64,000 nucleotides of DNA from Spirochaetaceae bacterium (GTDB lineage: Bacteria > Spirochaetota > Spirochaetia > DSM-2461): assembly GCA_965224705.1 (NCBI GenBank), contig OZ245056.1:529736-593735 (forward strand). Reading direction: 5' to 3'. Positions 15,247 to 33,688 of this stretch are shown here, in pieces. How positions within the stretch are numbered: the stretch's first letter is position 1; each line of letters starts with the position of its first letter. The notes under the pieces are model-generated. The model made no database searches. It had not been told where the DNA came from and saw only the letters and a program-made list of their open reading frames with translations. Made by a program: the position numbers and the translations under genes.

Positions 15247-18200
15247 CGGGCATAATCCGGTTGTGAAAGAGTTCCTTCAATTGACTTCCACCAGCCCCTT
15301 TGTAGGGAGGCAGGGTTTGTCCGGCCAGATATTCTTTGGTTTCCTTTTGCCAGGCATCCTCATTTTTCTTTTTATCCCCGTCAAACCGTCTCTTACACAA
15401 GGGGTCTTCCCTGAAAAGTTTGATCAAATCAAATTCCGTGTTATCTTTGGCAAGTTCGAGTTTTATCATCGGACGGGTATTGTTGGGAATTAGAAAAAAG
15501 ATTCTCGCTATGCCCTCGGGAAGTGGTTTTTTGGCGGCATCAAGTTCATACCATTTTTCAGGGTCAATAGCTTCCCCTGCCTGAAATTTATCATCGGAAA
15601 GTTTGACAAAACTACCGGATATGCCCCAGGAAGACATTTGCGTACCCAATTTACCATCGGCAGTGAAGACGGGTATTCCAATCTTGTTATCAACAGAACG
15701 GGAGTCCGAATCGTTGACAATCTGAAAGATGGTTTTTCCCTCCCAGGTCTGCCGTCGAAGCATGTACTTACCTTCGGATGTCAAAATCGGCAGGGAAAAC
15801 ACCTTGCGGACCTTCTGATGGGGGTGTTTTTTACTATTTACGCGGAAGTAGCTTCGCAGAAAGGTGCCAAAGTCTTTATCGTCACGATGTTTTTCCCATT
15901 CTTTTTTAAGATTTATCCAGCTTTGACGCTGGGGGATGGTGATGGCTGTTCCATTGGATGGAAATTTAGTCTGGAAGTTTTTTTTATTGGCTATTGTAGC
16001 AAAGAGGTTTTTTTTCTTTTCCTTTTTTTCTTCTTGCAGAGTAAGTTTACGCTTCTCTGTGCGATAACCCAGGCCGGAATAGCAGAATTTAGCAAAGCCA
16101 TCAAAGGGGACTCCCGTTTTTGTATTGTGTTTTTCCATCCAGTACTTATGCAGCTTCAGTTTATCGATGGTCAGGGTTATACAGCCGCCGGTTTTGATTT
16201 TGGGGATATTGACCAGCCAGTCATATAGCTCACCCAGCGACTTGAATGGAGGGGGTGTTTCCGGATAGTGTACGCGCTGTTTCAAAAGGGGCAGCAGCCG
16301 GTTGAGGAAATCTATCTTGGGAGATTTCCACTGACCGGAATTTGTCCAGTCGAAACCGGCCTTGACGCTAATCTTTCCATCTTTTTCCTTTTTCATCAGA
16401 ACAGGCAGGTAATGGTCGCCGTACATGGTGTCTCTGGTGTAGGCCCTGTGTCGGGTGAACTCTTCCCTCGGCTTTCTTCGACTTAGAGCGATGACTGAAA
16501 AATCAGCAGAATCCGCACGAACCAGAGTATCGGTAAACAGGTTTTCGCGGGAGACTTCGCCGGTTTTCCTGTTGACGGGAAAAAGGCCTCTGTCTTCAGA
16601 AAAAACAAGTTGAAGACTGCCCTCCCTCTTGTGGCGGTCCGCTGTCAGCAGAAAGGCCATCTGGGCATCCAGAAGATGGGAGTAGGATTCTTGTTTCTGC
16701 TCCGGTGCCTTGGCATACTTCTCTATTTCATCGTCCATGAATTCATATAGTTTTCTAAGGTCCTTTATGCCGTCTCCCTTGGAGTTGCTCACCGCCTCCA
16801 CGCCAAAGTAGTCAAAATCAATCAGTTCTTGCCTGCCCAGGGAAAGGGCTTTTTTATAAAACGCATTGGCCAAAATCTCGGCGAAGTAGCGCTGGGTGCC
16901 GTTTACCAATGCCCGGCTTCTGTTGTCTATGGCCTGGAGTACCGCCTTCTTGAGAGGATGCTCATTGCCCAGAAACAGGGCATGGCGAAAGGCCTTTTGC
17001 TGCTCCTCCTCCAAATTGACAAAGTTCTTATATCGTCCAAACTTAAACTGCCCTCTGTCCGCATCCCAGATTGTTTCGACAATCTTTTTTTCTATCACCC
17101 CATCGTCGGCGGTGTCAAAGATTTTCTGCTTGTAATGAGTATGAAGGTTTGAAAGGGTGTAGAATCGCTCCAGCTTGTCGTTGTTTCCCTTCTTGCTGGC
17201 ATAGATGAGATTGGCCTCATCATTGAGGGTGCCGTATCTGGATGATCGGGGAATAATGTGGTCCAGTTCGCCATCGTTTCCAGCGAGGCTCCCCGTGTAG
17301 GGGCATATTCCCCCTCCCGCAGCCTGGATTCTTTTTTCCTTGTCTTCTATCGTGGGTGCTTTTCCTGCGTCTTTTTTGCTAGATTTTTTTTTGGCTTTAT
17401 CCCCCTTAATCGTTCGCAGGGATGGTTCAAATTCAAAGCGGTTGGATTCGGTGATAATGGGAACCCGAACACGGGTTCCCTGTGCCAGAGACTTTTGGAT
17501 GCGGGGCCATTGATCTTCGGCTATCTGTTTGGTCAGGATTCTGGTCATCCGCATAACGCCCCCATCTATCAAGCGGGTGGGAATGGCCGGAAGACGCTGA
17601 GCTTTGGCTCCCATGTCGTCCTGCTGCTCGATGCTCTCCATTCTATAGCTGTTATCCATGCTGCAAACCGGGCAGGTATTGGAGTTTCCCGTTCGGCCCG
17701 TAAAAACAATGTTGTATATCTGGGCAAAGGAAAAAACCGATTCAAACTTTTTTACTCTGGCTTCGGTTTCTTCCGACTTTCCAAACAGTTTTTCTCCAAT
17801 TTTTTTACTGAATTTGATTGAGTTATCGCGGAGGGCCGTTAGCTTCTTATCCTTACCCATGGCAATACGAACTCCCAGATACCCCTTGTGATCCTTTTGA
17901 GCCTCGGCGCATTTTTTGCAATGGTCTTTCATTTTGAAATCCTTGATCCACTCCAGCAGCTCATCATCGCTGCTGGATCCGATTTTATCTTTCAGGAAAT
18001 CCGGGTTCACCTGCAGAACACCGGCCAAGTCATGAAACATCTGGTAGCGTTTTTGCCGGGGTTTGTGGTTGCAGTAGATCAGCAGTTTGCCAGTGTTATC
18101 GAAGCGGGTGGTTCTTTCATAACCCCTTTTACCGTTGTGTTTGTATTCGGGATGGATAAAAATCCGCCCATCCCTGGCCCGCTGCCGCATTTTGTAATAC

Positions 18201-20053
18201 CGGCAGACAAAGTGGAGAAATTCGCCGTTGGGAAAAATATCATCGCGGTTAAAGTCAGGCTTGGTTTTCAGTAAATCCGGGAGGCGGCTTTCTTCTATGG
18301 CTTCGGCCAGTTCTTTCCGTACATCTTTAGCTGATTTTTCCTGGCGTATTTTCTTTGTGCGGCTGTAGATTTCATTGAGCTTCAGGGGGTCGGAGGCCTT
18401 GCTCCGATCCAATATAAAGTGTAGCACTCTGGCATCCAGGTCAGCCATATTTCTTTTCTGGGAGTCCGTGCGCAACTCGCCGGAAAATTCTCCGGTATAA
18501 TATGGCTTGCCCTTGCTGCTTTGCAGCTTTTCCAGTCTATCCCGGAAGTTTCCCAGATACTCCACTGCCGCCTCTTCCAAAAGGGAGAGCCACTCTTTCC
18601 ACCGGGGGTATTTTTGGTCAAGAAACCCGGAATGGAGTATCAGGCTTTGACAGCGCGGCGGGCGGCGGTTGTTGTTATCCTGATAGGGGGGAATTGTGCT
18701 GATGGGCGCTTCGGTCATCCAGAAATCGACAATCCCGCCGCTGTGCTTCGTCCAGCGTTCTTTGAGGGCCTTGTAATCCTGCGGCTTTCCGGGCTGTTTT
18801 TCCCGGTCGGTATCCGGATTAACCCTCCATTCCCGCAGCAGCCACTTGTCAAAGCAGTTTGTCAGTCTGGCTTCATCCCAGAAATCACCGCCTCGGTGTG
18901 CTTTGTTATCGAAATACTTCCTCAGCGGCTTTAGTTCCAAATTGCTTATGTGGCCAATCAAGTTGGTCAGTTTTTCCGGGCTTGTTCCCGAGTACTTTCC
19001 CCCTTGCAGGCTGCTGCAAAACCGCTTGAGATACCCATGGGTATGATCCTTGCGGCTAAGAACTTCCAGCACCTCATCAAAGTACTTTTTGCGGTGCCGT
19101 CCGCCCGATACCAGCTCACCATGAACCTTATAGAGTGCGTAGGTCAGGTGGTGGATGTGCGACTTGTCGTACTCCTTTTCGTCGGGGTCGCTCAGATTGA
19201 GTTTGTCCATATCGCACGAAGATTCATCGAAATCCCACATTGAATCCTTGCGGGACTTTGTTTTGGCCGTGTAGTCCGGCACTGTGTCCCGTATCCGCTG
19301 TATCCGGTCCTGGTTTTCGGCTGCGTACTCGGTCATATTCATTGATTTGGCATCATTCGGTACTCCCTCCAGTCCCTGAACACCGGATTCAATCCACCTG
19401 TCGATAATCCAGCGGGAAAGCTGCTGCAGAGTTTTGCCTTTTTTATTCAGATCAACTCCGGAGGCATTATCCAATACCAGTTGGCAATACTCTTTAAGGA
19501 GCTTTGTTCTGCCGTAATACTGCAAGTCATCTTTACCCTCTTTGGCCTTTTTGACCTCTTTGCATAGTGCTTCCAGGGCTTCGCCGCATTTTTCCTGGTT
19601 GCCCGCAAGTTCTTGCAATACCCGGTCCAAATCTATGCGTCCCCCTTCTTCGGCATCCACCATGTTCTTGAAGTCACTGGGGAGTTTCGACCACACTTCC
19701 GCAGGAAAGCAGGAGAGCACGGACTTGTCGTATTCCTCGGTAAGAACACTGAATCCCCGGCGGTTCAGCAGAAATCCGATGCTTTGGGAAACATCCGCAT
19801 TCCAGGGAAGGCAAAGGTGCTTCTCCCAGATAAGCCGGAAGAGCCGTTTGGCCATTTGCCGCCGGTCCATTCCCCGGCGCTGATGCCGTGTGGCGGTACG
19901 GCCCACCATAAGCAGGGTGTAAGCATTTTTTTCCAGATTGTACACGGTTCCTGATCTTTCAATATTCCTGGCATCACTTCCGGCGGGGTAGTGCGCACTG
20001 TACACGCCGGTATGGGCGGCACCTAAGTCAATGGCTATGGGATTTATATTCAT
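15224..20053 (-). CDS. cas9: Type II-B Cas9 (1609 aa), FnCas9-like
   Basis: RuvC-I PIAIDLGAAHTGV, RuvC-II PIITESNRFEFEP, HNH ELDHIIPRS..NDEANLIYASKKGNNDK and RuvC-III SYSHLLDAQMAF. Many long blocks are colinear with F. novicida Cas9 as recalled (NLELKPLRKYF, TIPPYQDNNNRRPPRCQSLIL, YCNHKPRQKRYQ, AQRLPAIPTRL, VNGTQRYFAEILAN, IVNDSDSR). Confidence 0.97.
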   Translation of the reverse strand: MNINPIAIDLGAAHTGVYSAHYPAGSDARNIERSGTVYNLEKNAYTLLMVGRTATRHQRRGMDRRQMAKRLFRLIWEKHLCLPWNADVSQSIGFLLNRRGFSVLTEEYDKSVLSCFPAEVWSKLPSDFKNMVDAEEGGRIDLDRVLQELAGNQEKCGEALEALCKEVKKAKEGKDDLQYYGRTKLLKEYCQLVLDNASGVDLNKKGKTLQQLSRWIIDRWIESGVQGLEGVPNDAKSMNMTEYAAENQDRIQRIRDTVPDYTAKTKSRKDSMWDFDESSCDMDKLNLSDPDEKEYDKSHIHHLTYALYKVHGELVSGGRHRKKYFDEVLEVLSRKDHTHGYLKRFCSSLQGGKYSGTSPEKLTNLIGHISNLELKPLRKYFDNKAHRGGDFWDEARLTNCFDKWLLREWRVNPDTDREKQPGKPQDYKALKERWTKHSGGIVDFWMTEAPISTIPPYQDNNNRRPPRCQSLILHSGFLDQKYPRWKEWLSLLEEAAVEYLGNFRDRLEKLQSSKGKPYYTGEFSGELRTDSQKRNMADLDARVLHFILDRSKASDPLKLNEIYSRTKKIRQEKSAKDVRKELAEAIEESRLPDLLKTKPDFNRDDIFPNGEFLHFVCRYYKMRQRARDGRIFIHPEYKHNGKRGYERTTRFDNTGKLLIYCNHKPRQKRYQMFHDLAGVLQVNPDFLKDKIGSSSDDELLEWIKDFKMKDHCKKCAEAQKDHKGYLGVRIAMGKDKKLTALRDNSIKFSKKIGEKLFGKSEETEARVKKFESVFSFAQIYNIVFTGRTGNSNTCPVCSMDNSYRMESIEQQDDMGAKAQRLPAIPTRLIDGGVMRMTRILTKQIAEDQWPRIQKSLAQGTRVRVPIITESNRFEFEPSLRTIKGDKAKKKSSKKDAGKAPTIEDKEKRIQAAGGGICPYTGSLAGNDGELDHIIPRSSRYGTLNDEANLIYASKKGNNDKLERFYTLSNLHTHYKQKIFDTADDGVIEKKIVETIWDADRGQFKFGRYKNFVNLEEEQQKAFRHALFLGNEHPLKKAVLQAIDNRSRALVNGTQRYFAEILANAFYKKALSLGRQELIDFDYFGVEAVSNSKGDGIKDLRKLYEFMDDEIEKYAKAPEQKQESYSHLLDAQMAFLLTADRHKREGSLQLVFSEDRGLFPVNRKTGEVSRENLFTDTLVRADSADFSVIALSRRKPREEFTRHRAYTRDTMYGDHYLPVLMKKEKDGKISVKAGFDWTNSGQWKSPKIDFLNRLLPLLKQRVHYPETPPPFKSLGELYDWLVNIPKIKTGGCITLTIDKLKLHKYWMEKHNTKTGVPFDGFAKFCYSGLGYRTEKRKLTLQEEKKEKKKNLFATIANKKNFQTKFPSNGTAITIPQRQSWINLKKEWEKHRDDKDFGTFLRSYFRVNSKKHPHQKVRKVFSLPILTSEGKYMLRRQTWEGKTIFQIVNDSDSRSVDNKIGIPVFTADGKLGTQMSSWGISGSFVKLSDDKFQAGEAIDPEKWYELDAAKKPLPEGIARIFFLIPNNTRPMIKLELAKDNTEFDLIKLFREDPLCKRRFDGDKKKNEDAWQKETKEYLAGQTLPPYKGAGGSQLKELFHNRIMPDETSGDQ

Positions 20054-20201: not shown

Positions 20202-20781
20202 GTGGCTAGGATTACCATTCAGACTAAAGTCAGAGCACCTGTTGAAAAAGGTGTGGGACTTTTACACCGAGCCGAAGCATGTCAAGCACTGGGAGCCTGT
20301 CGAACTTACGTCTCACGGCTCGATTTTTGCCCTTTTTTCCCGCTACCGCGTTGCCAAAATGCTCACGTAGCCCAGCTACGCTCCGCTTTTGCCGCCTTGT
20401 ATCGGAAAAAAATCATCAAAAATCGCCTCGAAGCCTTAAAGTCCGACAGACTCCTGGAACAATGCAAGCGAAGACTGGCACACGCCGCAGGCCGAAAACG
20501 AGCTTGGACCCGGCGGAACATTTTCATACCGGATGGAAGCAAAGGACGAGAGCAGGGGCTTTGATTATACCGGGACCTTTGAAGATGTCGTCGCCTGCAA
20601 GTCGCTCAAATCAAGCCTCGCAGACGGGCGAAAGGTGGAGGCTTCTTTCTCCGGCGTTGGAGCCGAAACAACAGTCGTCGTCAGATTTGATCCCGACAAA
20701 CAGGTATCGGAAGACATGCAAAAAGCTGGCTGGCAGGCGATCCTGGACAACTTCAAAAAATATACGGAACAAGGAGTCTGA
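20202..20781 (+). pseudogene. SRPBCC/AHSA1-family gene disrupted by a MITE and an apparent 1-nt frameshift
   Basis: The N-terminus RITIQTKVRAPVEK continues in the +1 frame as VWDFYTEPKHVKHW (extra G near 20250). After the MITE it resumes as NNASEDWHTPQAENELGPGGTFSYRMEAKDESRGFDYTGTFEDV... Confidence 0.7.
20293..20453 (+). mobile_element. MITE, internally deleted variant (161 bp) with 4-bp TSD CTGG
   Basis: GAGCCTGTCGAACTT...AAGTCCGACAGACTC, flanked by CTGG (20289-20292 and 20454-20457). Removing it restores the codons K-H-W-N-N of the host gene. Confidence 0.7.
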
Positions 20782-21391: not shown

Positions 21392-24300
21392 TTAACTGAA
21401 CCCGTTATTTCCAGTTCCCCCCGTCAGGCAATGCCGTGACGGTACAAACTGGAACCCTTTAACGGCATCCAGGGAAGCGGCACCGTCTTTATGCCGCAGC
21501 CACACCCGCTGCCAGGCCAGTTCGGTACCCCGTAACCGGGTGTAACGGCCGTTTTCATCTATTTCCAGCGACCACCACTGCCCGTCAGGATTTGTGCTCA
21601 TAATACAGGAGGGAAGGGACCGGTCCAGGGCCCAGATAATCTGCGTACCATCATCGGAGCCGGAGGCCAGGAGGCGGCCATCAGGGCTGAATGCCACACT
21701 CCCAACCCAGTCGGCATACCCTTCCAGGACGCCTTCGCATTCACCTCTCGCACTCCACAGTCTCACCGTTCCGTCAGCGGAGCCGGAAGCCAGTCGACGG
21801 CCATCAGGGCTGAATGCCACACTCCAAACCCAACTGGCATGCCCTTCCAGGACGGCTTCGCAATCTCCTTCCGCGCTCCACAGTCTCAGCGTTTTGTCAG
21901 AGGAGCCCGAGGCCAGGCGGCGGCCATCAGGGCTGAATGCCACACTCAAAACACTAGAGGCATGCCCTTCCAGGACGGCCAGGCAATCTCCTTCCGCGCT
22001 CCACAGTCTCAGCGTTTTGTCAGAGGAGCCGGAGGCCAGGCGGCGGCCATCGGGGCTGAATGCCACACTAAAAACCAAAACAGAATGTCCTTCCAGGACG
22101 GCTTCGCATTCTCCTTCTACGCTCCATAGTCTCAGCGTACCGTCAAAGGAGCCGGAGACCAGGCGGCGACCATCAGGGCTGAATGCCACACTATTGACTT
22201 TATTGGAATGTCCTTCCAGGACGGCTTTGCATTCACCTTCTGCGCTCCACAGTCTCAGTGTACAGTCATTGGAACCGGAGGCCAGGAGGCGGCCATCGGG
22301 ACTGAATCCCACACTCAAAACCCTGGCGGAATGCCCTTCCAGGACGGTTTTGCATTCGCCTTCTGAGTTCCACAGTCTCACCGTTCCATCATCGGAGCCG
22401 GAAGCCAGGCGTCCATCGGGGCTGAATCCCACACTCCAAACACTAGCGGAAGTCCCTTCCAGGACGGCTTTGCATTCTCCTTCCACGCTCCACAGTCTCA
22501 CCGTTCCATCATCGGAGCCGGAGGCCAGACGGCGGCCATCGGGGCTGAATCCCACACTAGAGACTCCACCTCTATGCCCTTCCAGGACACCTTCGCATTC
22601 TCCTTCCGCGCTCCACAGTCTCACCGAAGCGTCATCGGAGCCGGAGACCATGAGGCGTCCATCGGGGCTGAATCCCACACTAGAGACTCCACCTCTATGC
22701 CCTTCCAGGACACCTTCGCATTCTCCTTCCGCGCTCCACAGTCTCACCGTTCCGTCAGAGGTACCGGAGGCCAGGAGGCGGCCATCGGGGCTGAATGCCA
22801 CACTCATAACCCAGTCGGAATGCCCTTCCAGGACGGCTTCGCATTCTCCTTCCGCGCTCCACAGTCTCACCGTTCCGTCAGAGGAGCCGGAGGCTAGGCG
22901 GTGGCCATCAGGGCTGAATCCCACACTCCATACCCAATTGGAATGCCCTTCCAGGACGACTTCGCATTCGCCTTCCGCACTCCACAGTCGCAGCGTACCG
23001 TCAAAGGAGCCGGAGGCCAGGCGGCGGCCATCGGGGCTGAATGCCACATTACAAACCCTATCGGAATGCCCTTTCAGGACGGCTTCGCATTCTCCTTGCG
23101 CGCTCCACAGTCTCAGCGTTTTGTCATCGGAGCCGGAGGCCAGGCGGTGTCCATCTGGGCTGAATGCCACACTTCTAACCCTATCGGAATGCCCTTTCAG
23201 GACGGCTTCGCATTCTCCTTGCGCGCTCCACAGTCTCAGCGTTTTGTCATCGGAGCCGGAGGCCAGGCGGCGGCCATCGGGGCTGAATGCTATACTATAA
23301 ATTCTACCTCTATGGCCCCATGTTATATGATTCTTCGCGTAGGGCAGGGGCGAGACAGGTGCCATAGGGCGACCCGGATATATCCGGCTTCCCCTTTTTG
23401 CAAAAAGTCCGGGAATCGGCCCCTTCGCATTGACACAGGTCAGCCTTTGAGCATCCTGCTTCCCTTCTGTTCTCGTAACCCGGCATTCTTCCCATACCGA
23501 TTGATTGATGTTCGTTTCGTTCAACTCCAGCTCATCAATGCGGCATTCCTGCCAGCGGCAGAGAAGCATTTGACAGCGGGTTAGTACCAGTTTCCGGGCA
23601 CCGATGCCCCGAAGCTTTTCGCCGGACATATCGGCACCGAAGACATGAACCTTTTCAAATGCTTCAAAAGGCTGGCCCTCCTCCGCCGCGGATCGGATAA
23701 TTCGGAGCAGCAGGGCATCCTGATGCGGTGAATGGGCACTCTTTTCCGGCCGGGCGGCATAGGCCGCAAGCTGTGCATGCAGTTTTTTCCGCTCGCCGTC
23801 CTTCAGTAGAACAAGGGCCTCTCCAATGAACTTTTCCGTCAGGCGGGAAACGGGTTTGGCCAGGGAATAACCATCCTGTATCCACTGTGAGAGCAGTTTC
23901 CGGGCCAGGAAATACTCCTGCATGGAGCTGTGGGTAAAACCGAATTCATCCTCGCCGAATCGGAGCAGCAGGGTGGAATTGCGCAGATCCTTTTCGAGCT
24001 GTTCGCTGCCCTCCGTCTCATACTGGGCAAACATATTCCTGTCTCTGCGCAGCCATGTCTGGTACCAGTCGTTCAAATTGTCTATGTTCATGCGCTGTTC
24101 ACTGTTCTTCCAAAAATACAGGGCCATATCCTGGAGCAAACGGTGCTTATGGCGGGGCTTAAGAACATGTTTACGATCGCGATCCATTACATCAGCGATA
24201 AGGGCTTCATAGAACACGGCGGCATTGACGGGAATACCCTCCGACTGTATGGACTGGATGGACGGAAGCAAATCGGGCAGTTTACTCAGCAGGAGGGGAC

Positions 24301-26143
24301 GGCGTCCCAGGGCGGCCAGGTATTCCTCGCCGTCTATGTAATTCCACACCCGTAATGCCCCCTCCTTCCCCAGTTTCTTCTCCAGGAGCTGCCGCATCTT
24401 TCCATCCGAAAGGAGCAGTATTTCCATGGCCCGGTAGTCCCCCTGTTCAGCATCGGAGCGATAAAGGCCTCGCAGGAAACCGGCCTGCTTGTAAATCGTT
24501 TCAAAGTGATGACTCCGGCAGGAAATTACCGTCTTTACCTTTGACTCATCCCGCGTTTTCTCGGACGGAAACACCTTCATCAGTTCGCCTAGAAAACGGT
24601 CCTGCCTGTCGTCGGTATAGTAGACTAGCTTTTCATCCAGGCCGTCAAATATGGGAAGAACCCGTCCCTGTCTGACATCTTCAATAACCTTTTTCGGCAC
24701 GGCCCGAACCTCATGCTTTCGCAGCACCATTGCAATCATTTCGTTTAGAAGGGGAAGGCGTTTCGTGACTATGCCGTCTTTTATCTCTTCAACAAAGGTC
24801 TGTACCTCGCGTAAATCCATGTACAGGGGAATCGGCAGGGAAGAATCGTTTTTGCGTGCTTCCACCAGATGCTGGGCAAAAATACGGCAATTGAAGGTTT
24901 TGCCCATGCCGTAGTCGCCCAGTATTGTGTAAACGGGTTCCTTGCCATCTTTTGCCCAGCTCAGCATGTCGGGAACCAGTTCCCTGGATGGCCTTGACTG
25001 CCTTTCCTCATTGCCATCCTCTCTGTGGCGTCGTTTTTGTTCTGCCAGAAAGACTTTTTCCGTTGGGCTTAACATCAAAGTGCGTTGTGCCTCGGAACTT
25101 ACAAATTTTTCGGGAGAGTAATCTGGGTTGTTCTTATCTTTGCATTTTTCTAATTCTTTGTTCCGGGTTTTTTCACGCTCTTCTCTCTGTACCATGACTT
25201 CCTGAATATTCTTAATCAAACCATCGACAAATCGTTCCTGGAAATTGTCGGATTCGCATTTTCCCCAAAAAGCATCGGGATCAAGTCCCTGCTGATAGTA
25301 CGTGTGGATCGTCACTATTTTTCTGGTATTTTTTTTCCAGCCGGGAATCTTTCCTTTGAACCCCCTTTTCATAAGAGCAAAAAATTCTGAAGGTGTTTTT
25401 ACGCGACCATCCCACTTGGAATCCAGTCCGGCCACAAGGAGCTTGTCGTTCTGAAGCAGATAAGGGAATTCCTCTTCTGCAATGAATCGGCTGTCGAGGA
25501 AGGCCTGGGATAGGCAGGCCAGGCCAAAATCGGCTTCAGCCATCTTCTCCCTAATCTGTACCGCAAAATCCCGGCCCGGCAGCAGATGAGGCATTCGCCA
25601 AATACGGATGGGCCTTTTGGTACCCTTGCTTCGCTCCTCCAGTATCCGAGTAAGATCCCTGACTAATCTGTTGTCCTCATAGGCATAGCTGAGAAACAAT
25701 TTCAAGTCATTCTTGCCCAGGGGTTTGTCGTCCACATTCGAAACGTCATTGAAAACGAATTGTTCGCTGTTATACTGCCGGTTGGCATCCAGTAAGTTGC
25801 CAATCGGTTCGGAAGGGGCCTCAATGCTTATGCATCCGGGATTGGAAGCGGTTTTCTGATGGGTGATTATCTTTAGGGATTCCAGCACATCCTTCAAACC
25901 TCTGTCTTCCTGATTACCGGCGGCCGTTTTAATGGCTTCTCTAACCCGCCTGAGAAAGTTCCGGAAACTGCCGCCGGGGTTCTTCGCGTTGGCATAGATT
26001 TCCTGCACAGCCCGTTCGGTTTCCACCTTTCCGTCTTCAAGCAGGCGGACCAGCTTGTTCAGATTTTTAGAATCGGTCTTTCCCAACTCGTTAAGGCTAA
26101 GGAATTCGTCTATCACTTTTTCTATGGAAGTCATAAAAACCAT
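21392..26143 (-). CDS. TIR-NACHT-WD40 STAND NTPase (bacterial NLR-like, putative defence sensor/effector)
   Basis: TIR-like block KLFLSYAYEDNRLVRDL...ACLSQAFLDSRFIAEEEF. NACHT Walker A ILGDYGMGKTF and Walker B LPIFDGLDE. Fourteen C-terminal WD40 units (GHSxxVxSVAFSPDGxxLASGSxDxTxRLW). Confidence 0.85.
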   Translation of the reverse strand: MVFMTSIEKVIDEFLSLNELGKTDSKNLNKLVRLLEDGKVETERAVQEIYANAKNPGGSFRNFLRRVREAIKTAAGNQEDRGLKDVLESLKIITHQKTASNPGCISIEAPSEPIGNLLDANRQYNSEQFVFNDVSNVDDKPLGKNDLKLFLSYAYEDNRLVRDLTRILEERSKGTKRPIRIWRMPHLLPGRDFAVQIREKMAEADFGLACLSQAFLDSRFIAEEEFPYLLQNDKLLVAGLDSKWDGRVKTPSEFFALMKRGFKGKIPGWKKNTRKIVTIHTYYQQGLDPDAFWGKCESDNFQERFVDGLIKNIQEVMVQREEREKTRNKELEKCKDKNNPDYSPEKFVSSEAQRTLMLSPTEKVFLAEQKRRHREDGNEERQSRPSRELVPDMLSWAKDGKEPVYTILGDYGMGKTFNCRIFAQHLVEARKNDSSLPIPLYMDLREVQTFVEEIKDGIVTKRLPLLNEMIAMVLRKHEVRAVPKKVIEDVRQGRVLPIFDGLDEKLVYYTDDRQDRFLGELMKVFPSEKTRDESKVKTVISCRSHHFETIYKQAGFLRGLYRSDAEQGDYRAMEILLLSDGKMRQLLEKKLGKEGALRVWNYIDGEEYLAALGRRPLLLSKLPDLLPSIQSIQSEGIPVNAAVFYEALIADVMDRDRKHVLKPRHKHRLLQDMALYFWKNSEQRMNIDNLNDWYQTWLRRDRNMFAQYETEGSEQLEKDLRNSTLLLRFGEDEFGFTHSSMQEYFLARKLLSQWIQDGYSLAKPVSRLTEKFIGEALVLLKDGERKKLHAQLAAYAARPEKSAHSPHQDALLLRIIRSAAEEGQPFEAFEKVHVFGADMSGEKLRGIGARKLVLTRCQMLLCRWQECRIDELELNETNINQSVWEECRVTRTEGKQDAQRLTCVNAKGPIPGLFAKRGSRIYPGRPMAPVSPLPYAKNHITWGHRGRIYSIAFSPDGRRLASGSDDKTLRLWSAQGECEAVLKGHSDRVRSVAFSPDGHRLASGSDDKTLRLWSAQGECEAVLKGHSDRVCNVAFSPDGRRLASGSFDGTLRLWSAEGECEVVLEGHSNWVWSVGFSPDGHRLASGSSDGTVRLWSAEGECEAVLEGHSDWVMSVAFSPDGRLLASGTSDGTVRLWSAEGECEGVLEGHRGGVSSVGFSPDGRLMVSGSDDASVRLWSAEGECEGVLEGHRGGVSSVGFSPDGRRLASGSDDGTVRLWSVEGECKAVLEGTSASVWSVGFSPDGRLASGSDDGTVRLWNSEGECKTVLEGHSARVLSVGFSPDGRLLASGSNDCTLRLWSAEGECKAVLEGHSNKVNSVAFSPDGRRLVSGSFDGTLRLWSVEGECEAVLEGHSVLVFSVAFSPDGRRLASGSSDKTLRLWSAEGDCLAVLEGHASSVLSVAFSPDGRRLASGSSDKTLRLWSAEGDCEAVLEGHASWVWSVAFSPDGRRLASGSADGTVRLWSARGECEGVLEGYADWVGSVAFSPDGRLLASGSDDGTQIIWALDRSLPSCIMSTNPDGQWWSLEIDENGRYTRLRGTELAWQRVWLRHKDGAASLDAVKGFQFVPSRHCLTGGTGNNGFS
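21630..23325 (-). repeat. 14 tandem 123-bp WD40-coding units with very high DNA identity
   Basis: Adjacent units are nearly identical at the DNA level, for example 23041-23163 vs 23164-23286, and 22561-22680 vs 22681-22800. One unit is 120 bp. Confidence 0.85.
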
Positions 26144-26443
26144 CCTCGTAAGTCTAATCTAACCAGGGAGACAAGAAAACGTCAAGGAAATTTTTACAAA
26201 TATTTCTAAATTTTTACATTTCTGCCCTTCGGATGGAGCGGTATCCAATGAGGTGGGATATGTATAGCCGATTTTCCTTCCGATTTATCAAATGAGCGGC
26301 GAATCAATCTCTCAAAACGACTGTTTTTCATTCTTGTTGGAATAGAATTAGATACGATTGTCCGACCCTATCTCCCCAATTTATGAAAGACGACACGCAT
26401 TTTGTGGCAAGATAAGAGGACAGCCTGATAGGGATAAGCTAAG

Positions 26444-26753: not shown

Positions 26754-27005
26754 ATGACAGATAAGAACACCAAAGACTCAAGCTTCATCCCTCAGACTTC
26801 ATCCTTTACTGATCGCTGGTTGTCTGTAGATGAAATTGGAGACTATCTCGGGATCAAGAGGGATACCGTTTATAAGTGGATAAACGAAAAAGATATGCCC
26901 GCTCATAAGATTGGCCGTCTTTGGAAATGCAAAAAAGACGCAGTTGATCAATGGGTGCGCAATGGCGGCGCTGATTCTTCAGATGAATCCGGCAAGGGAA
27001 AGTAA
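26754..27005 (+). CDS. Excisionase-family helix-turn-helix DNA-binding protein
   Basis: WLSVDEIGDYLGIKRDTVYKWINEKDMPAHKIGRLWKCKKDAVDQWV is the HTH_17/excisionase-type pattern. It is the first gene of the co-directional block. Confidence 0.7.
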   Translation: MTDKNTKDSSFIPQTSSFTDRWLSVDEIGDYLGIKRDTVYKWINEKDMPAHKIGRLWKCKKDAVDQWVRNGGADSSDESGKGK

Positions 27006-27038
27006 AGCGATATGATGGAAGGATAAACGGGCGACAAG

Positions 27039-30000
27039 ATGAAAATCCTGGACAATATAAATAACCTTTGGGGAAATGACCTGAAGGAGACTCTTAAGCC
27101 AGGTGCAAAACTGAAAATTGCAGCCTCATGCTTTTCTATCTATGCATTTGAAGCCCTTAAAAAAGAGCTCGAAAAAATTGATTCGCTTGAGTTTATCTTT
27201 ACGGCTCCGACGTTTGTTCCTAATGAAGTGACCGACAAGGTATCCAAAGAGCGTCGGGAATTTCATATTCCGAAGCAGCAGCGTGAGCGAAATCTCTATG
27301 GCAGCGAGTTTGAAATACAGCTTAAAAACAAACTGACGCAACGTGCCATTGCCAAAGAATGCGCTGGCTGGATTAGACGCAAAGCCTGCTTTCGATCAAA
27401 TTCCATAAAAGCACCGATGCAGCAATTTGCATGTTTAAATAAAGGCGATGCTGCTGCTGTATATATGCCGCTTCATGGCTTTACAGCAGTCGATCTTGGC
27501 TACCAGCAAGGTAATGCCGTCTCGAATTTTATAAGCAAATTTGACGATGCTCCTTCAACGCAGACATGGCTGAATCTTTTTAATCAGATATGGAAAGATT
27601 CTTCAAAACTAAAAGATGTGACAGATGCCATTTGCACACATATCGAATCCGTTTATCAGGAGAATCCTCCCGAAAAAATCTATTTTCTAATGCTCTATAA
27701 CATCTTCAACGAGTTCCTTGAGGACCTGAATGAAGATCTCCTTCCAAATGATTTGACTGGATACAAAAACAGTGTTGTCTGGAATAAGCTGTTTAACTTC
27801 CAAAAGGATGCAGTAACCGGGATTATAAATAAGCTTGAGAACTTTAACGGATGCATTCTTGCAGACAGTGTCGGGCTCGGTAAAACCTTTACTGCACTTG
27901 CAGTGATTAAATACTACGAACTACGCAATCGCTCAGTACTGGTTTTATCCCCGAAAAAACTTGCTGACAACTGGTTGAACTATAACCAAAACCTAAAAAC
28001 AAATATTCTGGTTAAAGACCGTTTGAATTATGAGGTTCTTTGCCACACGGATTTACAGCGCACAAGTGGGGAATCTTTTGGAACACCGCTGGACAGAATT
28101 AACTGGGGCAATTATGATCTCGTGGTCATTGATGAGTCACACAATTTCAGAAACAACGATGCTTACAAGGATAAGGAAACCCGATACCAAAAACTGATGA
28201 ATTCTGTCATTAGAGATGGGGTTAAAACAAAAGTCTTAATGCTTTCTGCAACACCGGTCAATAACAGATTCAATGACCTTAGAAACCAATTGGCATTGAC
28301 ATACGAGGGCGAGTCAGAAAAACTGAGTAGTAAATTAAGGACCGGAAAAAAAGTTGAAGAAATTTTCCGGCACGCACAGACTGTATTTAATTCATGGGCA
28401 AAGCTGCCAGCAGATAAACGCACAGCCAGAGCAATACTGGATGCTCTTGATTTTGATTTTTTTGAGCTGCTTGATAGCGTAACCATTGCCCGGTCCAGAA
28501 AACACATAGAAACTTTCTATGATACTGCGTATATCGGCAAGTTTCCTGTAAGACGCAAACCCATATCTTTCCGCTGCCCACTGACTTCCCGTAAGGACGT
28601 CATGAGTTTTAATGAAATTTATGAACATCTAATGGAAATAAAGCAATCTGTTTATATTCCTATGTTATATGTTTTTGAAAGTAGAAAATCAAAATATGAA
28701 AACCTTAACGAAGGTAAAAAATATGATAGTCAGTTTTTGCAAGCTCAAGCAAACGGTATAAAAAAACTCATGGCTACTAATCTACTCAAAAGATTAGAAA
28801 GCTCAGTAAATTCTTTCCGTATAACACTTAATACAATGAAAGAAAAAATTAAAGAAAAACTATCTGAAATTGATGAACTCAATAAGATTCAATTATCTTC
28901 TGTGATTAGTGACGATTGGGAAGATGAAGACACGGATGGTGTTTTGGAAACACAAGCAAATTCTAAAATCGAAATAGACCTTGCTGACATTGATTTAGAA
29001 TCATGGAAAAGAGACTTAGAAGAAGACCAGACTCTGGTTGAATTACTCCATGAGGAAATGGAAAAAATATCTCCTGAAGATGACACCAAGCTCCAACACC
29101 TTAAATCTCACATTAAAAACAAAATCAAACAACCCATAAACTCTGGAAATAAAAAGATCATTATCTTTACGGCTTTCGCAGATACTGCGAGCTACCTTTA
29201 CGACAACCTCTGTGATGAACTATTAAAAATTGGAATACACGCTGGAAAAATTACCGGAAAAGATATTCCTAAAACCACACTGAGCCAATTGAACAAAAAA
29301 CGGGGATATGGCTTTCAGTCTATCCTCACCCTTTTCTCCCCGATATCGAAAGAAAAAGCACTGACTCTTCCTGAAGAGCACAGTGAAATTGACTTACTTA
29401 TAGGTACGGACTGTATTTCTGAAGGGCAGAATCTACAGGATTGCGATTATCTAATCAACTACGACATTCACTGGAACCCTGTCCGTATTATTCAACGATT
29501 TGGGCGTATCGACCGTATCGGCTCCCCAAACGAATCCATCCAACTGGTTAACTACTGGCCTGATATTTCTCTGGATGAATACATCAATCTGAAAGAGCGG
29601 GTGGAGAACAGGATGGTCATTGACGATGTTACGGCCACCGGAGACGACAATGTACTTTCGGGCCAGTCCAATGATGTCAGCTATCGAAAAGAACAGCTCC
29701 GCCGTCTTCAGGATGAAGTGATCGATCTTGAAGACCTGAAAACTGGTGTAAACATAACTGACCTCGGACTCAATGACTTCCGCATGGACCTAATCAACTA
29801 TATCAAGAGCAACAGTGACTTAGATCATTTACCTAATGGACTCCACGCTATCGTCGCAGCCAATGAGAATATAGGGTTACAACCGGGAGTGATATTTACA
29901 CTCCGGAATAGAAATTCGGGCGTCAACATCAATCAGCATAACCGGCTGCATCCGTATTATCTCATCTACATCAACGACGATGGTCAGGTCATTACTGACC

Positions 30001-30293
30001 ACACACAGGTCAAACAACTTTTGGACTTGGTACGAACAAGCTGCAAGGGGAAGGAAGTGCCTTTTACTGATTTATGCTCTACCTTTAATCGTGAGACCAA
30101 CGACGGAAGAAATATGCTGAAATATTCAGAACTTCTCGGCCAGGCAATCCGAACGATGATTGAGATCAAAGAAGACAAGGATATCGACAGTCTGTTTTTA
30201 GGAACGAATACAACGGCATTGGTAGACACTATTCATGGACTGGATGATTTTGAACTGATTTCCTTCTTGGTCGTCAAGGAGGATACAACATGA
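27039..30293 (+). CDS. SNF2-family helicase with an extra ~250-aa N-terminal domain (PLD-like fold suspected, no HKD motif)
   Basis: Motif I LADSVGLGKTF, II VVIDESHNFRN, III MLSATPVNN, V/VI LIGTDCISEGQNLQ...WNPVRIIQRFGRIDRIGS. The N-terminus LKIAASCFSIYAFEALKKELEKIDSLEFIFTAPTF is typical of the helicase-related proteins found next to DUF4391. Confidence 0.85.
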   Translation: MKILDNINNLWGNDLKETLKPGAKLKIAASCFSIYAFEALKKELEKIDSLEFIFTAPTFVPNEVTDKVSKERREFHIPKQQRERNLYGSEFEIQLKNKLTQRAIAKECAGWIRRKACFRSNSIKAPMQQFACLNKGDAAAVYMPLHGFTAVDLGYQQGNAVSNFISKFDDAPSTQTWLNLFNQIWKDSSKLKDVTDAICTHIESVYQENPPEKIYFLMLYNIFNEFLEDLNEDLLPNDLTGYKNSVVWNKLFNFQKDAVTGIINKLENFNGCILADSVGLGKTFTALAVIKYYELRNRSVLVLSPKKLADNWLNYNQNLKTNILVKDRLNYEVLCHTDLQRTSGESFGTPLDRINWGNYDLVVIDESHNFRNNDAYKDKETRYQKLMNSVIRDGVKTKVLMLSATPVNNRFNDLRNQLALTYEGESEKLSSKLRTGKKVEEIFRHAQTVFNSWAKLPADKRTARAILDALDFDFFELLDSVTIARSRKHIETFYDTAYIGKFPVRRKPISFRCPLTSRKDVMSFNEIYEHLMEIKQSVYIPMLYVFESRKSKYENLNEGKKYDSQFLQAQANGIKKLMATNLLKRLESSVNSFRITLNTMKEKIKEKLSEIDELNKIQLSSVISDDWEDEDTDGVLETQANSKIEIDLADIDLESWKRDLEEDQTLVELLHEEMEKISPEDDTKLQHLKSHIKNKIKQPINSGNKKIIIFTAFADTASYLYDNLCDELLKIGIHAGKITGKDIPKTTLSQLNKKRGYGFQSILTLFSPISKEKALTLPEEHSEIDLLIGTDCISEGQNLQDCDYLINYDIHWNPVRIIQRFGRIDRIGSPNESIQLVNYWPDISLDEYINLKERVENRMVIDDVTATGDDNVLSGQSNDVSYRKEQLRRLQDEVIDLEDLKTGVNITDLGLNDFRMDLINYIKSNSDLDHLPNGLHAIVAANENIGLQPGVIFTLRNRNSGVNINQHNRLHPYYLIYINDDGQVITDHTQVKQLLDLVRTSCKGKEVPFTDLCSTFNRETNDGRNMLKYSELLGQAIRTMIEIKEDKDIDSLFLGTNTTALVDTIHGLDDFELISFLVVKEDTT

Positions 30294-30952
30294 GTTCGCT
30301 ATACAACTTCCCAAAGGCAGCTGCATTGGGAAGGATGCTTGCCAAAAGTAAAATCTACGATCACGCCGCGCCGAGCAGCAAGGTAAAGGAGCTGTTCGTC
30401 AAGGAGGTTGAAAAGATCATCTGGTCACACAAACTCTCTCCGACAACGATTAACCTTCCAGCCAGTGATGGCGTCCAGGAGATTCAGGTTTTCTCCATAC
30501 TATTAAGGACCGGGGAACTGTCGCAGGAAGTTCTGCACACAATAGACAAGGCAATACCTTCTCCCATTCTGTTTGAATTGAAATATGGCGGTAAAACCAA
30601 ATATGCCGCCAGTTACAAACGGCCCAGCGAGGTTGACAAAAAAAAGCGGGTGGTCAGCAGTTATTTCCTCTCCGACTGGATGAAGGAAGATGGTCCGGCA
30701 TCCGAACTTCCGGTGCTGCTCAATATGGGCGCTCTTTATCAGTCGTTTTTGACAAGTCTCAGTCCTCTTTCTTTCCGGCAAGGGGAGAAGCTGGGCGACT
30801 TGGCCGCAAGAGTTGACCTGCTGCGTATCAAAGAACGCGAAGCTGAAAAGGTGGAGAGCCGGATAAAGAGGGAGAAGCAGTTTAATCGACGAGTGGAACT
30901 GAACCGCACATTGAATGTGTTGAAGGCTGAGATAGAAGAAATGAGAAGATGA
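30290..30952 (+). CDS. DUF4391-like protein
   Basis: 220 aa. The start overlaps the SNF2 stop (ATGA). The N-terminal FPKAAALGRMLAKSKIYDH pattern, the size and the position next to an SNF2 gene match my recollection of DUF4391. This was not verified by search. Confidence 0.6.
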   Translation: MSSLYNFPKAAALGRMLAKSKIYDHAAPSSKVKELFVKEVEKIIWSHKLSPTTINLPASDGVQEIQVFSILLRTGELSQEVLHTIDKAIPSPILFELKYGGKTKYAASYKRPSEVDKKKRVVSSYFLSDWMKEDGPASELPVLLNMGALYQSFLTSLSPLSFRQGEKLGDLAARVDLLRIKEREAEKVESRIKREKQFNRRVELNRTLNVLKAEIEEMRR

Positions 30953-31204
30953 ACCGCGAAAAGCGCGAAATACGCGAAAAGGTTTTGTTTTTTGATGAAT
31001 GCTGTGTTATTCAGGGGGATGTTTTTTTTGTATAAAGAGATGGGGTGTGGCTTCCTGATAGAAGGATTGAGAAGATGAACCGCGAAAAGCGCGAAATACG
31101 CGAAAAGGTTTTGTTTTTTGATGAATGCTGTGTTATTCAGGGGGATGTCTTTGATGTGTATAAAGAGAGATGGGGTGTGGCTTCCTGATAGAAGGAATGA
31201 GAAG
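30949..31204 (+). repeat. Two decayed tandem copies (126 and 130 bp) of the 5' end of the GxxExxY gene
   Basis: ATGAACCGCGAAAAGCGCGAAA... recurs at 30949, 31075 and 31205. Copies 1 and 2 encode MNREKREIREKVLFFDECCVIQGD... and terminate after 28 and 37 codons. Confidence 0.85.
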
Positions 31205-31639
31205 ATGAACCGCGAAAAGCGCGAAACACACGGAAAGGTTTTGTTTCCTGAGGAATCCTATGCCATTCAGGGAGCTATCTTTGATGTGTATAAAGAGATG
31301 GGTTGTGGCTTCCTGGAGGCTGTCTATCAAGAATGTCTGGATAAGGAGTTGTCTAAACGAGACATTCCGTTTCAACCGCAAGTAGAGCTTCAGCTTAATT
31401 ATAAAGGTGAAAAGCTGAATCAGACCTATAAACCGGATTTTATCTGCTACGACAAAATCGTTGTTGAGATAAAAGCAGTAAAAGAACTGACATCTGAACA
31501 TAAGGCGCAACTCTTAAACTACCTCAAAGCCACCGGGCTTGAATTAGGACTGCTCGTCAACTTTGGCAGCCACCCAAAAATTGAAATTATACGAATTGCT
31601 AATACAAACTTTCGCGATTTTCGCGCATTTCGCGGTTAA
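31205..31639 (+). CDS. GxxExxY protein (PD-(D/E)XK-superfamily small protein common in R-M loci)
   Basis: MNREKRETHGKVLFPEESYAIQGAIFDVYKEMGCGFLEAVYQECL contains the signature GFLEAVY. I start at 31205 rather than the tracked 31118, which runs through a decayed repeat copy. Confidence 0.8.
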   Translation: MNREKRETHGKVLFPEESYAIQGAIFDVYKEMGCGFLEAVYQECLDKELSKRDIPFQPQVELQLNYKGEKLNQTYKPDFICYDKIVVEIKAVKELTSEHKAQLLNYLKATGLELGLLVNFGSHPKIEIIRIANTNFRDFRAFRG

Positions 31640-31651
31640 GGAGACACAAAA

Positions 31652-33688
31652 ATGGAAAAATTAAAAATGCACAGCCCTAACTTTGCAGAAGAAAATATCG
31701 CAAAGCTGGCGGAGCTGTTCCCAAACTGCGTTACTGAAAAAGAAGAAACCGCGAAAGACGCGAATGAACGCGAAAAGATGGTTTTGAAAAGAACCATTGA
31801 TTGGGATTTGCTCAAACAAGAGTTGTCCAACGACATTGTTGAAGGGCCACAGGAGCGCTACCACCTGAACTGGCCCGGCAAACGGAAAGCACTGCTTACG
31901 GCCAATGCGCCCATTGCCAAGACGCTCCGCCCTTGCCGCGAAAAGAGTGTGGATTTCGACACCACCGAAAACCTCTTTATTGAAGGGGATAATCTCGATG
32001 CCCTGAAACTTCTACAGGAAACCTATCTCGGCAAAGTAAAGATGATCTATATCGATCCGCCGTATAACACTGGTAAGGATTTTATCTACGCTGACAACTT
32101 TGCAAAATCCACGGAAGAATACTTGCTGGATTCCAGGCAAAAAGATGAAGAAGGTAACCGTCTCATTGCCAATACTGACTCCAATGGCCGCTTCCATTCA
32201 GACTGGCTGAGCATGATGTATCCACGGCTTAAATTGGCCAGAAACCTGCTCAAAGATGATGGAGTGATTTTTATTAGTATTGATGAAAATGAAATTGGGA
32301 ATATTGAAAAAGTTGTCACAGAAATCTTTGGCTCCGAAAATTTTCTTGGAAGTTTTCCTGTAGTAATGAACTTAAAAGGAAACCAAGATTCCTTTGGTTT
32401 CGCTGAGACTCATGAATATGTTGTTATCGCCTCAAAAAACAAAATACTCTGTAGTTTTAATCATTTTCCGATTGATGATGAGGAATTTAACAAAGCATGG
32501 TTTTCTGATGAATATGGGCCTTATAAAGAAGCGGATAATTTAAGGGCTACCGGTGTAAATGCACCGAGAGAAAAGAGACCAAACTTATGGTACCCAATTT
32601 TCTTAGATGAGAGTAAATTGGAATACTATGCAACAGATGACGATAAGCCTAAAGATAGTGCTCATACAAAAGTTTTGCCAATCAGCCCCAATGGTGAGGA
32701 ACTAAGTTGGTACTGGAGTAAAAACAATTTGAATCAAAACAAACACAATCTTATCTTAAAGAAGACATCAAACGGTTGGCAGTTTTACAAAAAACAACGA
32801 CCTCAAATTGGTGATTTACCAAGCAAAAAACCAAAATCATTTTTTTACAAACCTGAGTATAGTACAAGTACGGCAACAACCCACCTTAAAGTATTGCTTG
32901 AGTGCAAATTGTTTAATGGCCCTAAACCAGTACCATTCCTTAAAGACTTGGCTATTATTGGAACAAATGATAAAGACATCATCCTAGACTTCTTCGCTGG
33001 CTCCGCCACAACCACCCATGCAGTGATGCAGCTCAATGCCGAAGACGGAGGCAAGCGTAAGTTCATCATGGTTCAGCTCGCCGAAGCCTGTGATGAAAAA
33101 TCCGAGGCATTCAAAGCAGGCTATAAAACCATCGCCGAAATCAGCAAGGAACGTATCCGCCGTGCCGGGAAACAATTGACAATGAAAGGTGAAAACCATT
33201 CTCAATTATCAACTGTCAATTCTCCATTGGATATTGGTTTCCGCATCCTCAAGGTCGACTCCTCCAATATGGCCGATGTGTACTATACACCGGATGCCGT
33301 TGAACAAAAAGAACTCCCATTTTCTACCGATAACATCAAAGACGACCGCAGTTCCGAAGACCTGCTCTTCCAGGTATTATTGGACTGGGGAGTTGATTTA
33401 ACTTTGCCGATTTCTCGCGAAATCATCAAAGTTAAGAAGGATGAAAAAGACGAAAGCAAAGATTCATCCTTTCAAAAATACGAAGTATTCTTCGTGGATG
33501 GCAATGCACTGGCGGCCTGTTTCGAAAAAAGCGGCAGGATCACCGAGAATTTTTGCAAAGAACTCGCCGGGCGGCAGCCGTTGCGTGTTGTCTTCCGGGA
33601 CTCCGGCTTTAAGGACGACAGTGCCAAAATAAATGTAGAGCAGATATTCAAACTAATGAGTCCGCATACGGATGTGAAAACAATTTGA
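31652..33688 (+). CDS. mod: Type III-like (beta-class) N6-adenine/N4-cytosine DNA methyltransferase, Mod
   Basis: Motif IV MIYIDPPYNTGKDF precedes motif I ILDFFAGSATTTHAV. Typical Mod N-terminus SPNFAEENIAKLAELFPNCVTE. AGGAG RBS. Confidence 0.9.
   Translation: MEKLKMHSPNFAEENIAKLAELFPNCVTEKEETAKDANEREKMVLKRTIDWDLLKQELSNDIVEGPQERYHLNWPGKRKALLTANAPIAKTLRPCREKSVDFDTTENLFIEGDNLDALKLLQETYLGKVKMIYIDPPYNTGKDFIYADNFAKSTEEYLLDSRQKDEEGNRLIANTDSNGRFHSDWLSMMYPRLKLARNLLKDDGVIFISIDENEIGNIEKVVTEIFGSENFLGSFPVVMNLKGNQDSFGFAETHEYVVIASKNKILCSFNHFPIDDEEFNKAWFSDEYGPYKEADNLRATGVNAPREKRPNLWYPIFLDESKLEYYATDDDKPKDSAHTKVLPISPNGEELSWYWSKNNLNQNKHNLILKKTSNGWQFYKKQRPQIGDLPSKKPKSFFYKPEYSTSTATTHLKVLLECKLFNGPKPVPFLKDLAIIGTNDKDIILDFFAGSATTTHAVMQLNAEDGGKRKFIMVQLAEACDEKSEAFKAGYKTIAEISKERIRRAGKQLTMKGENHSQLSTVNSPLDIGFRILKVDSSNMADVYYTPDAVEQKELPFSTDNIKDDRSSEDLLFQVLLDWGVDLTLPISREIIKVKKDEKDESKDSSFQKYEVFFVDGNALAACFEKSGRITENFCKELAGRQPLRVVFRDSGFKDDSAKINVEQIFKLMSPHTDVKTI

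Follow-up and report, generated by a model that had tools for sequence, protein, structure and literature searches.

What does a single large gene do that lies between a CRISPR-Cas locus and a restriction-modification (R-M) operon in the genome of a Spirochaetaceae bacterium (assembly GCA_965224705.1, contig OZ245056.1, positions 529,736 to 593,735; this stretch of 64,000 nucleotides is referred to below as the window)? The gene is one uninterrupted open reading frame (ORF) of 1583 aa at window positions 21392-26143 on the minus strand, as are all features within the gene given below, and its product is composed, in order, of an NNH6 domain, a TIR domain, a NACHT NTPase, a pentapeptide-repeat-like β-helix, 14 WD40 repeats and a conserved tail. 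Bacterial NACHT proteins have an established role as anti-phage sensors and are regarded as ancestors of animal and fungal NLRs. We consider it probable, at roughly 60%, that the product is an intracellular sensor of NLR type (STAND/NACHT) that is encoded by one gene and carries its own TIR effector, and that it acts in anti-phage abortive infection. An earlier reading made from the letters alone (the sequence-only reading) had proposed a TIR-NACHT-WD40 protein at this locus, and the ORF check found the frame intact at exactly the coordinates it gave.

Full-length scans against Pfam, NCBIfam and PADLOC were swamped by the WD40 repeats and uninformative for the N-terminal 940 aa, so pieces of the protein were scanned separately. 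The switch of the proposed receptor is a NACHT module at residues 385-760 (23864-24991), delineated by profiles and by an AlphaFold2 (AF2) model with Foldseek, and made up of a nucleotide-binding domain, a helical domain and a winged helix. An alignment of 66 family sequences places the Walker A motif at G409-DYGMG-K415-T416 (24896-24919) and the Walker B motif at LPIF-D500-G-L-D-E504 (24632-24658), the latter with the D[GAS]hDE signature that is diagnostic of NACHT (Kibby et al., bioRxiv 10.1101/2022.07.19.500537). The winged-helix motif FGFT-H738-SSMQEYFL (23906-23944) aligns with the 'FxHxxxQEF' motif of NLRP proteins, and H738 itself lies in FGFTHSSMQEYF. Residues G412, G414, K415, T416, D500, G501, D503, E504, R543, P616 and H738 are invariant across the 66 sequences, with R543, in 'SCR', at the sensor-1 position; judged from this alignment, these are the residues expected of a working STAND switch.

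The window protein alone scores 19.4-20.7 bits against PF05729 (NACHT), for which the gathering cut-off is 26.7. The same profile is matched by 66 of the 66 family members scanned at E<=0.01 (best 1.9e-15), and matches of the family profile to NLRP1, NLRP9 and NLRP3 are collinear from Walker A via Walker B to the winged-helix motif. When residues 385-940 were modelled with AF2 (pLDDT 82.6, pTM 0.76), the first 34 Foldseek matches in the PDB were all animal NACHT NLRs (NLRP14/9/3/1, NLRC4, NOD2, NAIP5; E 7.5e-14 to 2e-7), with ORC/Cdc6, a wheat resistosome and Avs3 appearing first at ~1e-6. Assignment as an AP-ATPase or an Avs-type NTPase was rejected because the D-G-L-D-E signature and the Foldseek ranking both favour NACHT. 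The sequence-only reading had called NACHT from GDYGMGKTF and FDGLDE, and had named beforehand the failure of profile searches to recover TIR and NACHT as an outcome that would speak against it; both domains were recovered, NACHT by way of the family.

The TIR domain, with an extended αD region and a long αE helix, spans residues 146-335 (25139-25708), as given by Pfam, profile and AF2/Foldseek results. PF13676 (TIR_2), whose gathering cut-off is 28 bits, matches residues ~150-232 and scored 35.7 and 34.1 bits in two scans; a 52-sequence TIR family profile matches solved bacterial TIRs in the PDB at E 1.2e-8 to 3e-5, namely 7uxr, AbTIR (7uwg/8g83, deposited as 'NAD(+) hydrolase AbTIR'), BtpA/TcpB and PdTIR. 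Family profiles were required for this; as single sequences against the PDB, the TIR and NTPase pieces gave nothing meaningful. The AF2 model containing the TIR was built on a 27-sequence alignment (mean pLDDT 86.7), and its top Foldseek matches in the PDB are all TIR folds (RUN1, RPPT, TLR1/2/10, SpbK and BtpA; probability 0.99-1.00, TM (target) 0.48-0.66). Residues F150, S152, Y153, W182, G190, G207, S212, S218, I221 and E225 are invariant or nearly so in 181 family TIR regions. The conserved acidic residue that had been pointed to in the AEEEF segment is E225, the third Glu (codon 25469-25471): it is kept in 173 of 179 relatives, is invariant in alignment set A6, and pairs in the HMMER alignment with the Glu of AbTIR 'DWTNYELDG' via a one-residue gap. 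We take the Glu of this 'NYEL' to be the catalytic E208 of AbTIR. By its conservation and pairing, E225 appears to be the catalytic-type Glu of the family, and the domain is predicted to be of the NAD+-cleaving type.

Fourteen WD40 units of 41 aa occupy residues 941-1513 (21605-23323), the same number being obtained from Pfam and from a parse of the sequence, as it had been from the letters alone; the exceptions are unit 8, which is one residue short at 40 aa, and unit 14, which is degenerate. Tandem-repeat analysis of the DNA gave an array with a period of 123, 13.4 copies and 85% identity, and units 2-13 share 74-89% nucleotide identity pairwise. The region matches the 14-repeat Npun_R6612 of Nostoc punctiforme (PDB 2YMU) at E=3.8e-184 over ~517 residues, and the 2YMU protein folds into two WD40 domains (PMC5587647). 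From the 14 units, the 2YMU match and that two-domain description we infer, on good grounds, two 7-bladed propellers.

Variation between the units is concentrated at few positions. In a register counted from 'LEGH', amino-acid entropy peaks at unit positions 5, 6, 7, 9, 25 and 27, with 8 and 26 fixed. Codon positions 1+2 have a diversity of 0.53 in the hypervariable codons and 0.09 in the scaffold codons; for codon position 3 the values are 0.40 and 0.18. The 80%-identical orthologue P0001, encoded on metagenomic contig L001, and a further orthologue, P0002, vary at the same unit positions; P0001, the sole close orthologue with DNA, likewise has 14 units. In HET-D/E of Podospora, codons 7, 9, 25 and 27 are positively selected and 8 and 26 are under purifying selection (Paoletti et al., PMC1805685), and the selected residues were mapped to the propeller's top face, where ligand is bound; the top-face placement of the variable positions used below is taken from that work, on HET-D/E. 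On these sequence statistics the array has the 'highly internally conserved' (HIC) pattern of HET-D/E type. Prokaryotic highly repetitive WD40 proteins with variable 'hotspot' sites are also on record. A diversity-generating retroelement was considered as the source of the variability, and no reverse transcriptase was found within the window.

The remaining segments fill in a protein that is less simple than the sequence-only reading had it. Its N-terminus, described there as an unknown helical region of ~140 aa, is the Pfam domain NNH6 (PF22737, NACHT N-terminal Helical domain 6), assigned to residues 1-110 (25814-26143) from Pfam and the AF2 model; the match, at residues 18-74, scores 30.5 bits with a 145-aa piece and 28.3 bits with residues 1-384 (cut-off 27), and the AF2 model predicts ordered helices and a β-hairpin with pLDDT >90. 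A disordered linker follows at residues 111-145 (25709-25813; pLDDT <50 for 115-137 in the AF2 model), and a charged low-complexity linker, recognized from the sequence and the AF2 model, joins TIR and NACHT at residues 336-384 (24992-25138). The segment after NACHT had been called a linker: its first part is indeed helical, a spacer at residues 761-828 (23660-23863) in the AF2 model, but a plain linker it is not, for residues 829-904 (23432-23659) form a predicted pentapeptide-repeat-like β-helix (model strands 445-520, with weak Pentapeptide_4/MfpA matches), in agreement with the precomputed PF00805/PF13599 domains of a relative, P0006. Nor do the WD40 repeats, although correctly read, end the protein. 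Comparison with the orthologue delimits a conserved tail at residues 1514-1583 (21392-21604 including the stop codon; GQWWS...GTELAWQRV...FxFVPS), which is 94% identical in P0001 with a dN/dS of 0.32 and has no Pfam match; a related 'EAWRWLGW' motif is present in distant relatives. The tail may close the second propeller or form a separate small domain. Of the features tested as defining for NACHT, TIR, NNH6 and HIC WD40, the protein has all by sequence or predicted fold, the Pfam NACHT cut-off and the BB-loop region of the TIR (see below) aside.

The architecture is common. A profile of the non-WD40 part recovered 686 clusters at E<=1e-30, and 1820 when the limit was E<=1e-10, among 1.84 billion representatives, and 128 relatives were found in species-representative genomes, in Spirochaetaceae, Desulfobacteraceae, Ca. 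Electronema, Campylobacterota, Chlorobium, Verrucomicrobia/Prosthecobacter, Gemmataceae (Planctomycetes), Myxococcota and others; the nearest in this set, from a Spirochaetaceae metagenome-assembled genome, is 44% identical. The impression of a rare family given by a word-indexed search, with 6 relatives, was discarded as a sensitivity artefact once the profile had been searched exhaustively and the genomes scanned. The majority of the relatives have ~1,590 aa, a TIR, the same NTPase and 12-14 WD40 units. Among 75 N-terminal regions from the species-representative genomes, NNH6 is present in 52 (best 2.9e-27) and TIR_2 in 52, a PNP_UDP_1 phosphorylase stands in the place of the TIR in 5, and ~8, from Chlorobium, have an extra N-terminal ATPase. 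P0006 reads NNH6-PNP-NACHT-pentapeptide-WD40, and in the Candidatus Electronema (cable bacterium) relatives L005 and L006, nothing, whether TIR or another effector domain, separates NNH6 from NACHT. Because most relatives are of the TIR type and some of the others have PNP or nothing there, the window protein can be placed, on domain content, in the majority architecture of a large NACHT clade with a modular effector position.

Comparison with the 80% orthologue bears on how these parts evolve. NNH6, TIR and NACHT have dN/dS values of 0.22-0.39 (TIR 0.39) and are thus maintained by selection; the value for the WD40 region is 0.78. The TIR has 64% aa identity to P0001 and a dS of 0.55, and the other non-repeat segments have 84-94% aa identity and a dS of 0.08-0.28. 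P0001 also has a 43-aa duplication at the NNH6/TIR border, at residues ~115-157 (L001 ~10370-10500). This duplication takes in the first TIR strand (…KLFFSYS / …KLFISYAN). The divergence suggests a mosaic or recombinant history of the TIR segment, and, together with the duplication and the alternation of TIR, PNP and nothing among relatives, prompts the hypothesis that recombination swaps the effector segment in a frame that otherwise stays constant.

The siting of the gene in a defence island, between a CRISPR-Cas and an R-M-like locus, was borne out and can be stated more closely. Downstream lie a glyoxalase-fold gene and then a CRISPR-Cas locus of type II-B (13418-20053), identified by profile scans, with a Csx12-type Cas9 of 1609 aa, Cas1 and Cas4, and a CRISPR array at 12589-13219 with a period of ~74 bp and a repeat of ~36-37 nt; three ORFs adjoining it (9834-12487) have no Pfam or PADLOC match. 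Upstream, a divergent block at 26754-38584 contains a type III R-M operon and accessory genes: a small helix-turn-helix gene (mad1-like; 26754-27005), a SNF2-family helicase (PADLOC C3a139 'HKD+Snf2', DrmD-like), a DUF4391 gene, a PD-(D/E)XK gene (PDDEXK_3), the type III methyltransferase Mod (PADLOC 1.5e-216), a Schlafen/AlbA_2-HATPase_c_4 gene, and the type III restriction enzyme Res (1123 bits) with a C-terminal RE_endonuc domain. Housekeeping genes are found from ~38.7 kb onward in the window. A 130-bp tandem repeat (3 copies, 90% identity; 30931-31315) runs from the end of the DUF4391 gene to the start of the PD-(D/E)XK gene. A MITE- or REP-like element of ~100-150 bp recurs with 91-99% identity at window positions 3345-3446, 44675-44776, 20289-20439, 3575-3620 and 9573-9618, and also at L001 18449-18599; a copy that separates Cas9 from the glyoxalase gene is found a short way downstream of the NLR gene.

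At the other locus, P0001 on L001 adjoins a NotI-like R-M pair and mobile-element genes (transposase, reverse transcriptase). The reverse transcriptase is a 266-aa RVT_1 protein at L001 20391-21191, about 5.5 kb from the orthologue, and lies, with a DDE transposase, ~4-6 kb downstream of the orthologue. The window and L001 (~86% nucleotide identity) are collinear only over the gene and 117 bp upstream of it, and the DUF2807 gene next downstream of the orthologue (L001 14914-15735) has its homologue, with 87% nucleotide identity, at window 54710-55552, 29 kb from the NLR gene. Judged from this comparison, the NLR gene occupies rearranged neighbourhoods in closely related genomes and, because only the gene and its 117 bp are collinear, travels alone, which fits a one-gene system.

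Within the gene itself, translation probably starts at M4 (ATG 26134), giving a product of 1580 aa, because a GAGG that immediately abuts the first ATG is 9 nt upstream of this second one and P0001 begins at the equivalent position. A sigma-70-like promoter match (TTGACG-18-TAGATT; 26156-26185) lies 13 nt upstream of the ORF and is weak evidence, such matches upstream of the ORF being no commoner than in shuffled sequence.

The function that we favour follows standard NLR logic and is modelled on families with known behaviour: for ligand, oligomerization, NADase chemistry and phenotype we infer from the bacterial NACHT (bNACHT) proteins of Kibby et al. and from AbTIR-type enzymes. At rest, the NACHT module would keep the protein ADP-bound, auto-inhibited and monomeric. 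A ligand, for which a phage protein or a change brought about by infection is the likeliest candidate, would bind on the variable top faces of both WD40 propellers and free the NACHT for nucleotide exchange and oligomerization. The oligomer would gather the N-terminal TIRs into composite active sites around E225, and the assembly would cleave NAD+, such that the infected cell dies or arrests before phage release.

Several observations weigh against this reading. Relative to canonical TIRs, the distance from the conserved aromatic to the Glu is longer by one residue, which is why HMMER requires the one-residue gap. Position 184, after βB, is Met here and in the nearest relatives and Asp in 145 of 181 relatives, and the BB-loop Gly is lost in P0002, the corresponding G190 being kept in the window protein; because of these two changes, TIR activity in the sub-clade of the window protein does not seem guaranteed. 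Defence genes are sparse near 15 other family members (132 neighbour proteins), where the commonest PADLOC families have 5-6 matches each, several of them generic ATPase-type, and from this tally we make no claim of family-wide defence-island enrichment. In a scan of the window protein, PADLOC v2 had no model that recognized the NTPase, and its matches were weak TIR ones (ThsB, SAVED_TIR; E 1e-4 to 4e-2) and a WD40-driven HEAT-ARM match. A full-text literature search, incomplete in coverage, found no experimental test of a WD40-bearing bacterial NACHT. Lastly, many relatives come from filamentous or multicellular lineages (cable bacteria, Myxococcota), in which a role other than phage defence is possible.

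Among the other readings, the one that survives best concerns the clade more than the single protein, and we hold it as less likely than not: the clade may be a bacterial counterpart of HET-D/E, with a recombining WD40 repertoire and a swappable effector cassette in a constant frame, and with NNH6 as an output or regulatory module of its own. Concerted evolution would homogenize the scaffold of the repeats while some five residues on the top face of each blade are diversified by selection; the frame would be NNH6...NACHT-pentapeptide-WD40, and the cassette, a TIR, a PNP phosphorylase or nothing, would be swapped by recombination. The exchange of the cassette is hinted at by the TIR dS against the orthologue, which is two to four times that of the other non-repeat segments.

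A receptor not directed primarily at phage but at self/non-self or at stress, triggering cell death as fungal HET-D/E do, with re-assortable WD40 repeats recognizing polymorphic bacterial or host proteins, is distinctly less probable, although the organization of the array is that of HET-D/E, with 7, 9, 25 and 27 variable and 8 and 26 conserved. The WD40 dN/dS against the orthologue would suit it, as would the scarcity of defence genes near relatives and the spread of these over cable bacteria, Myxococcota, consortia-type taxa of Chlorobium, Planctomycetes and Verrucomicrobia. It has to be set against the bona fide defence systems on both flanks in the window, the R-M pair and mobile-element genes beside the orthologue, and the fact that the bacterial NACHT proteins tested are anti-phage (Kibby et al.).

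An equally small share of our belief goes to the view that sensor and switch work as above but that the TIR, in place of depleting NAD+, produces a nucleotide signal, be it an isomer of cyclic ADP-ribose or a related molecule derived from NAD, which activates a separate effector by the logic of Thoeris or type II CBASS-like systems. AbTIR and BtpA/TcpB, the closest solved TIRs by profile, produce cyclic ADP-ribose isomers. Some relatives, moreover, have PNP_UDP_1 in exchange for the TIR, and the PNP domain is discussed by Kibby et al. as a possible maker of nucleotide derivatives. Against it, no candidate gene for a receptor or an effector (SLOG, Macro, SAVED, STING or the like) adjoins the gene, whose neighbours are the glyoxalase-fold gene, the CRISPR-Cas locus and the type III R-M operon, and none is conserved, with the gene and 117 bp upstream being all that is in common with the 86%-identical contig.

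Least probable, and by some distance, is a TIR that in this sub-clade is catalytically dead or serves as a scaffold or oligomerization module, with the output elsewhere, for example in NNH6: M184 in place of the conserved Asp, the missing BB-loop Gly of P0002, the position of the TIR as the most diverged non-repeat segment against the orthologue and the retention of NNH6-NACHT without TIR in L005 and L006 speak for it, but E225 and the nine other conserved TIR residues named above are kept, the TIR dN/dS of 0.39 indicates purifying selection, and NNH6 has no detectable resemblance to a solved structure, enzyme or pore family, its family profile having no match in the PDB.

The protein can be set beside several known systems. 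Bacterial NACHT proteins defend against phage and require Walker A, and the bNACHT survey lists NNH, TIR, PNPase, pentapeptide and beta-propeller parts (Kibby et al.). The window protein has in common with them a NACHT with D[GAS]hDE, the effector-NACHT-sensor layout and the defence-island location, whereas the clade of bNACHT01, which has been studied well, ends in just a short C-terminal domain. Fungal HET-D/HET-E (NWD; PMC1805685) have the same order of NACHT and HIC WD40, with variable positions 7, 9, 25 and 27 and conserved 8 and 26, and a DNA-level repeat identity sufficient for unequal recombination. Their effector, however, is a HET domain where here NNH6-TIR is found, they have no pentapeptide β-helix, their repeats reach 100% identity as opposed to 74-89% here, and their role is in heterokaryon incompatibility. 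Apaf-1 and bacterial Apaf-1-like STANDs (PMC13581612) likewise use C-terminal tandem WD40 propellers to sense a ligand, and the WD40 region matches Apaf-1 at E ~1e-79, but the Apaf-1 type combines an AP-ATPase/NB-ARC with CARD/caspase, in contrast to the NACHT-like NTPase and TIR seen here. With plant TIR-NLRs (RPP1, ROQ1, WRR4A) and Avs/AVAST proteins the logic is common, that is, ligand-induced STAND oligomerization that clusters TIR or other effectors, and the TIR fold resembles RUN1 and RPP1; the plant NTPase, however, is an NB-ARC with an LRR sensor, and in Avs proteins TPR-like sensors are combined with STAND modules other than NACHT. In Foldseek, Avs3 and the plant NLRs stand at ~1e-6, against 1e-11 to 1e-14 for NACHT NLRs. 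For Nostoc punctiforme Npun_R6612 (2YMU), the repeat region alone was compared, and what the two have in common is a 14-unit, highly repetitive WD40 array.

How new the protein is was overstated by the sequence-only reading: its N-terminal domain already has a name in Pfam, its architecture is the majority form of a large and widespread clade, and its parts are in the published survey. The narrower claim that this architecture lacks an experimentally characterized member in bacteria was not contradicted by the full-text search; of the 27 bNACHT proteins that Kibby et al. tested, none has WD40 repeats, the term being absent from the text, and a 2026 survey of STAND proteins only catalogues WD40 sensors.

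The WD40-sensor branch of bacterial NACHT proteins is thus catalogued, and architecturally it is nearest to fungal HET-D/E, TEP1 and Apaf-1-type receptors. The gene described here is well suited to experiment, being compact, intact and lone in its defence island, with clear control residues (K415, D500 and E504, E225) and readable variable ones. Its study would reveal what ligand a propeller-NLR recognizes in bacteria and whether NACHT oligomerization activates a TIR as in plant TIR-NLRs. If the function is as predicted, a known paradigm would be extended rather than overturned.

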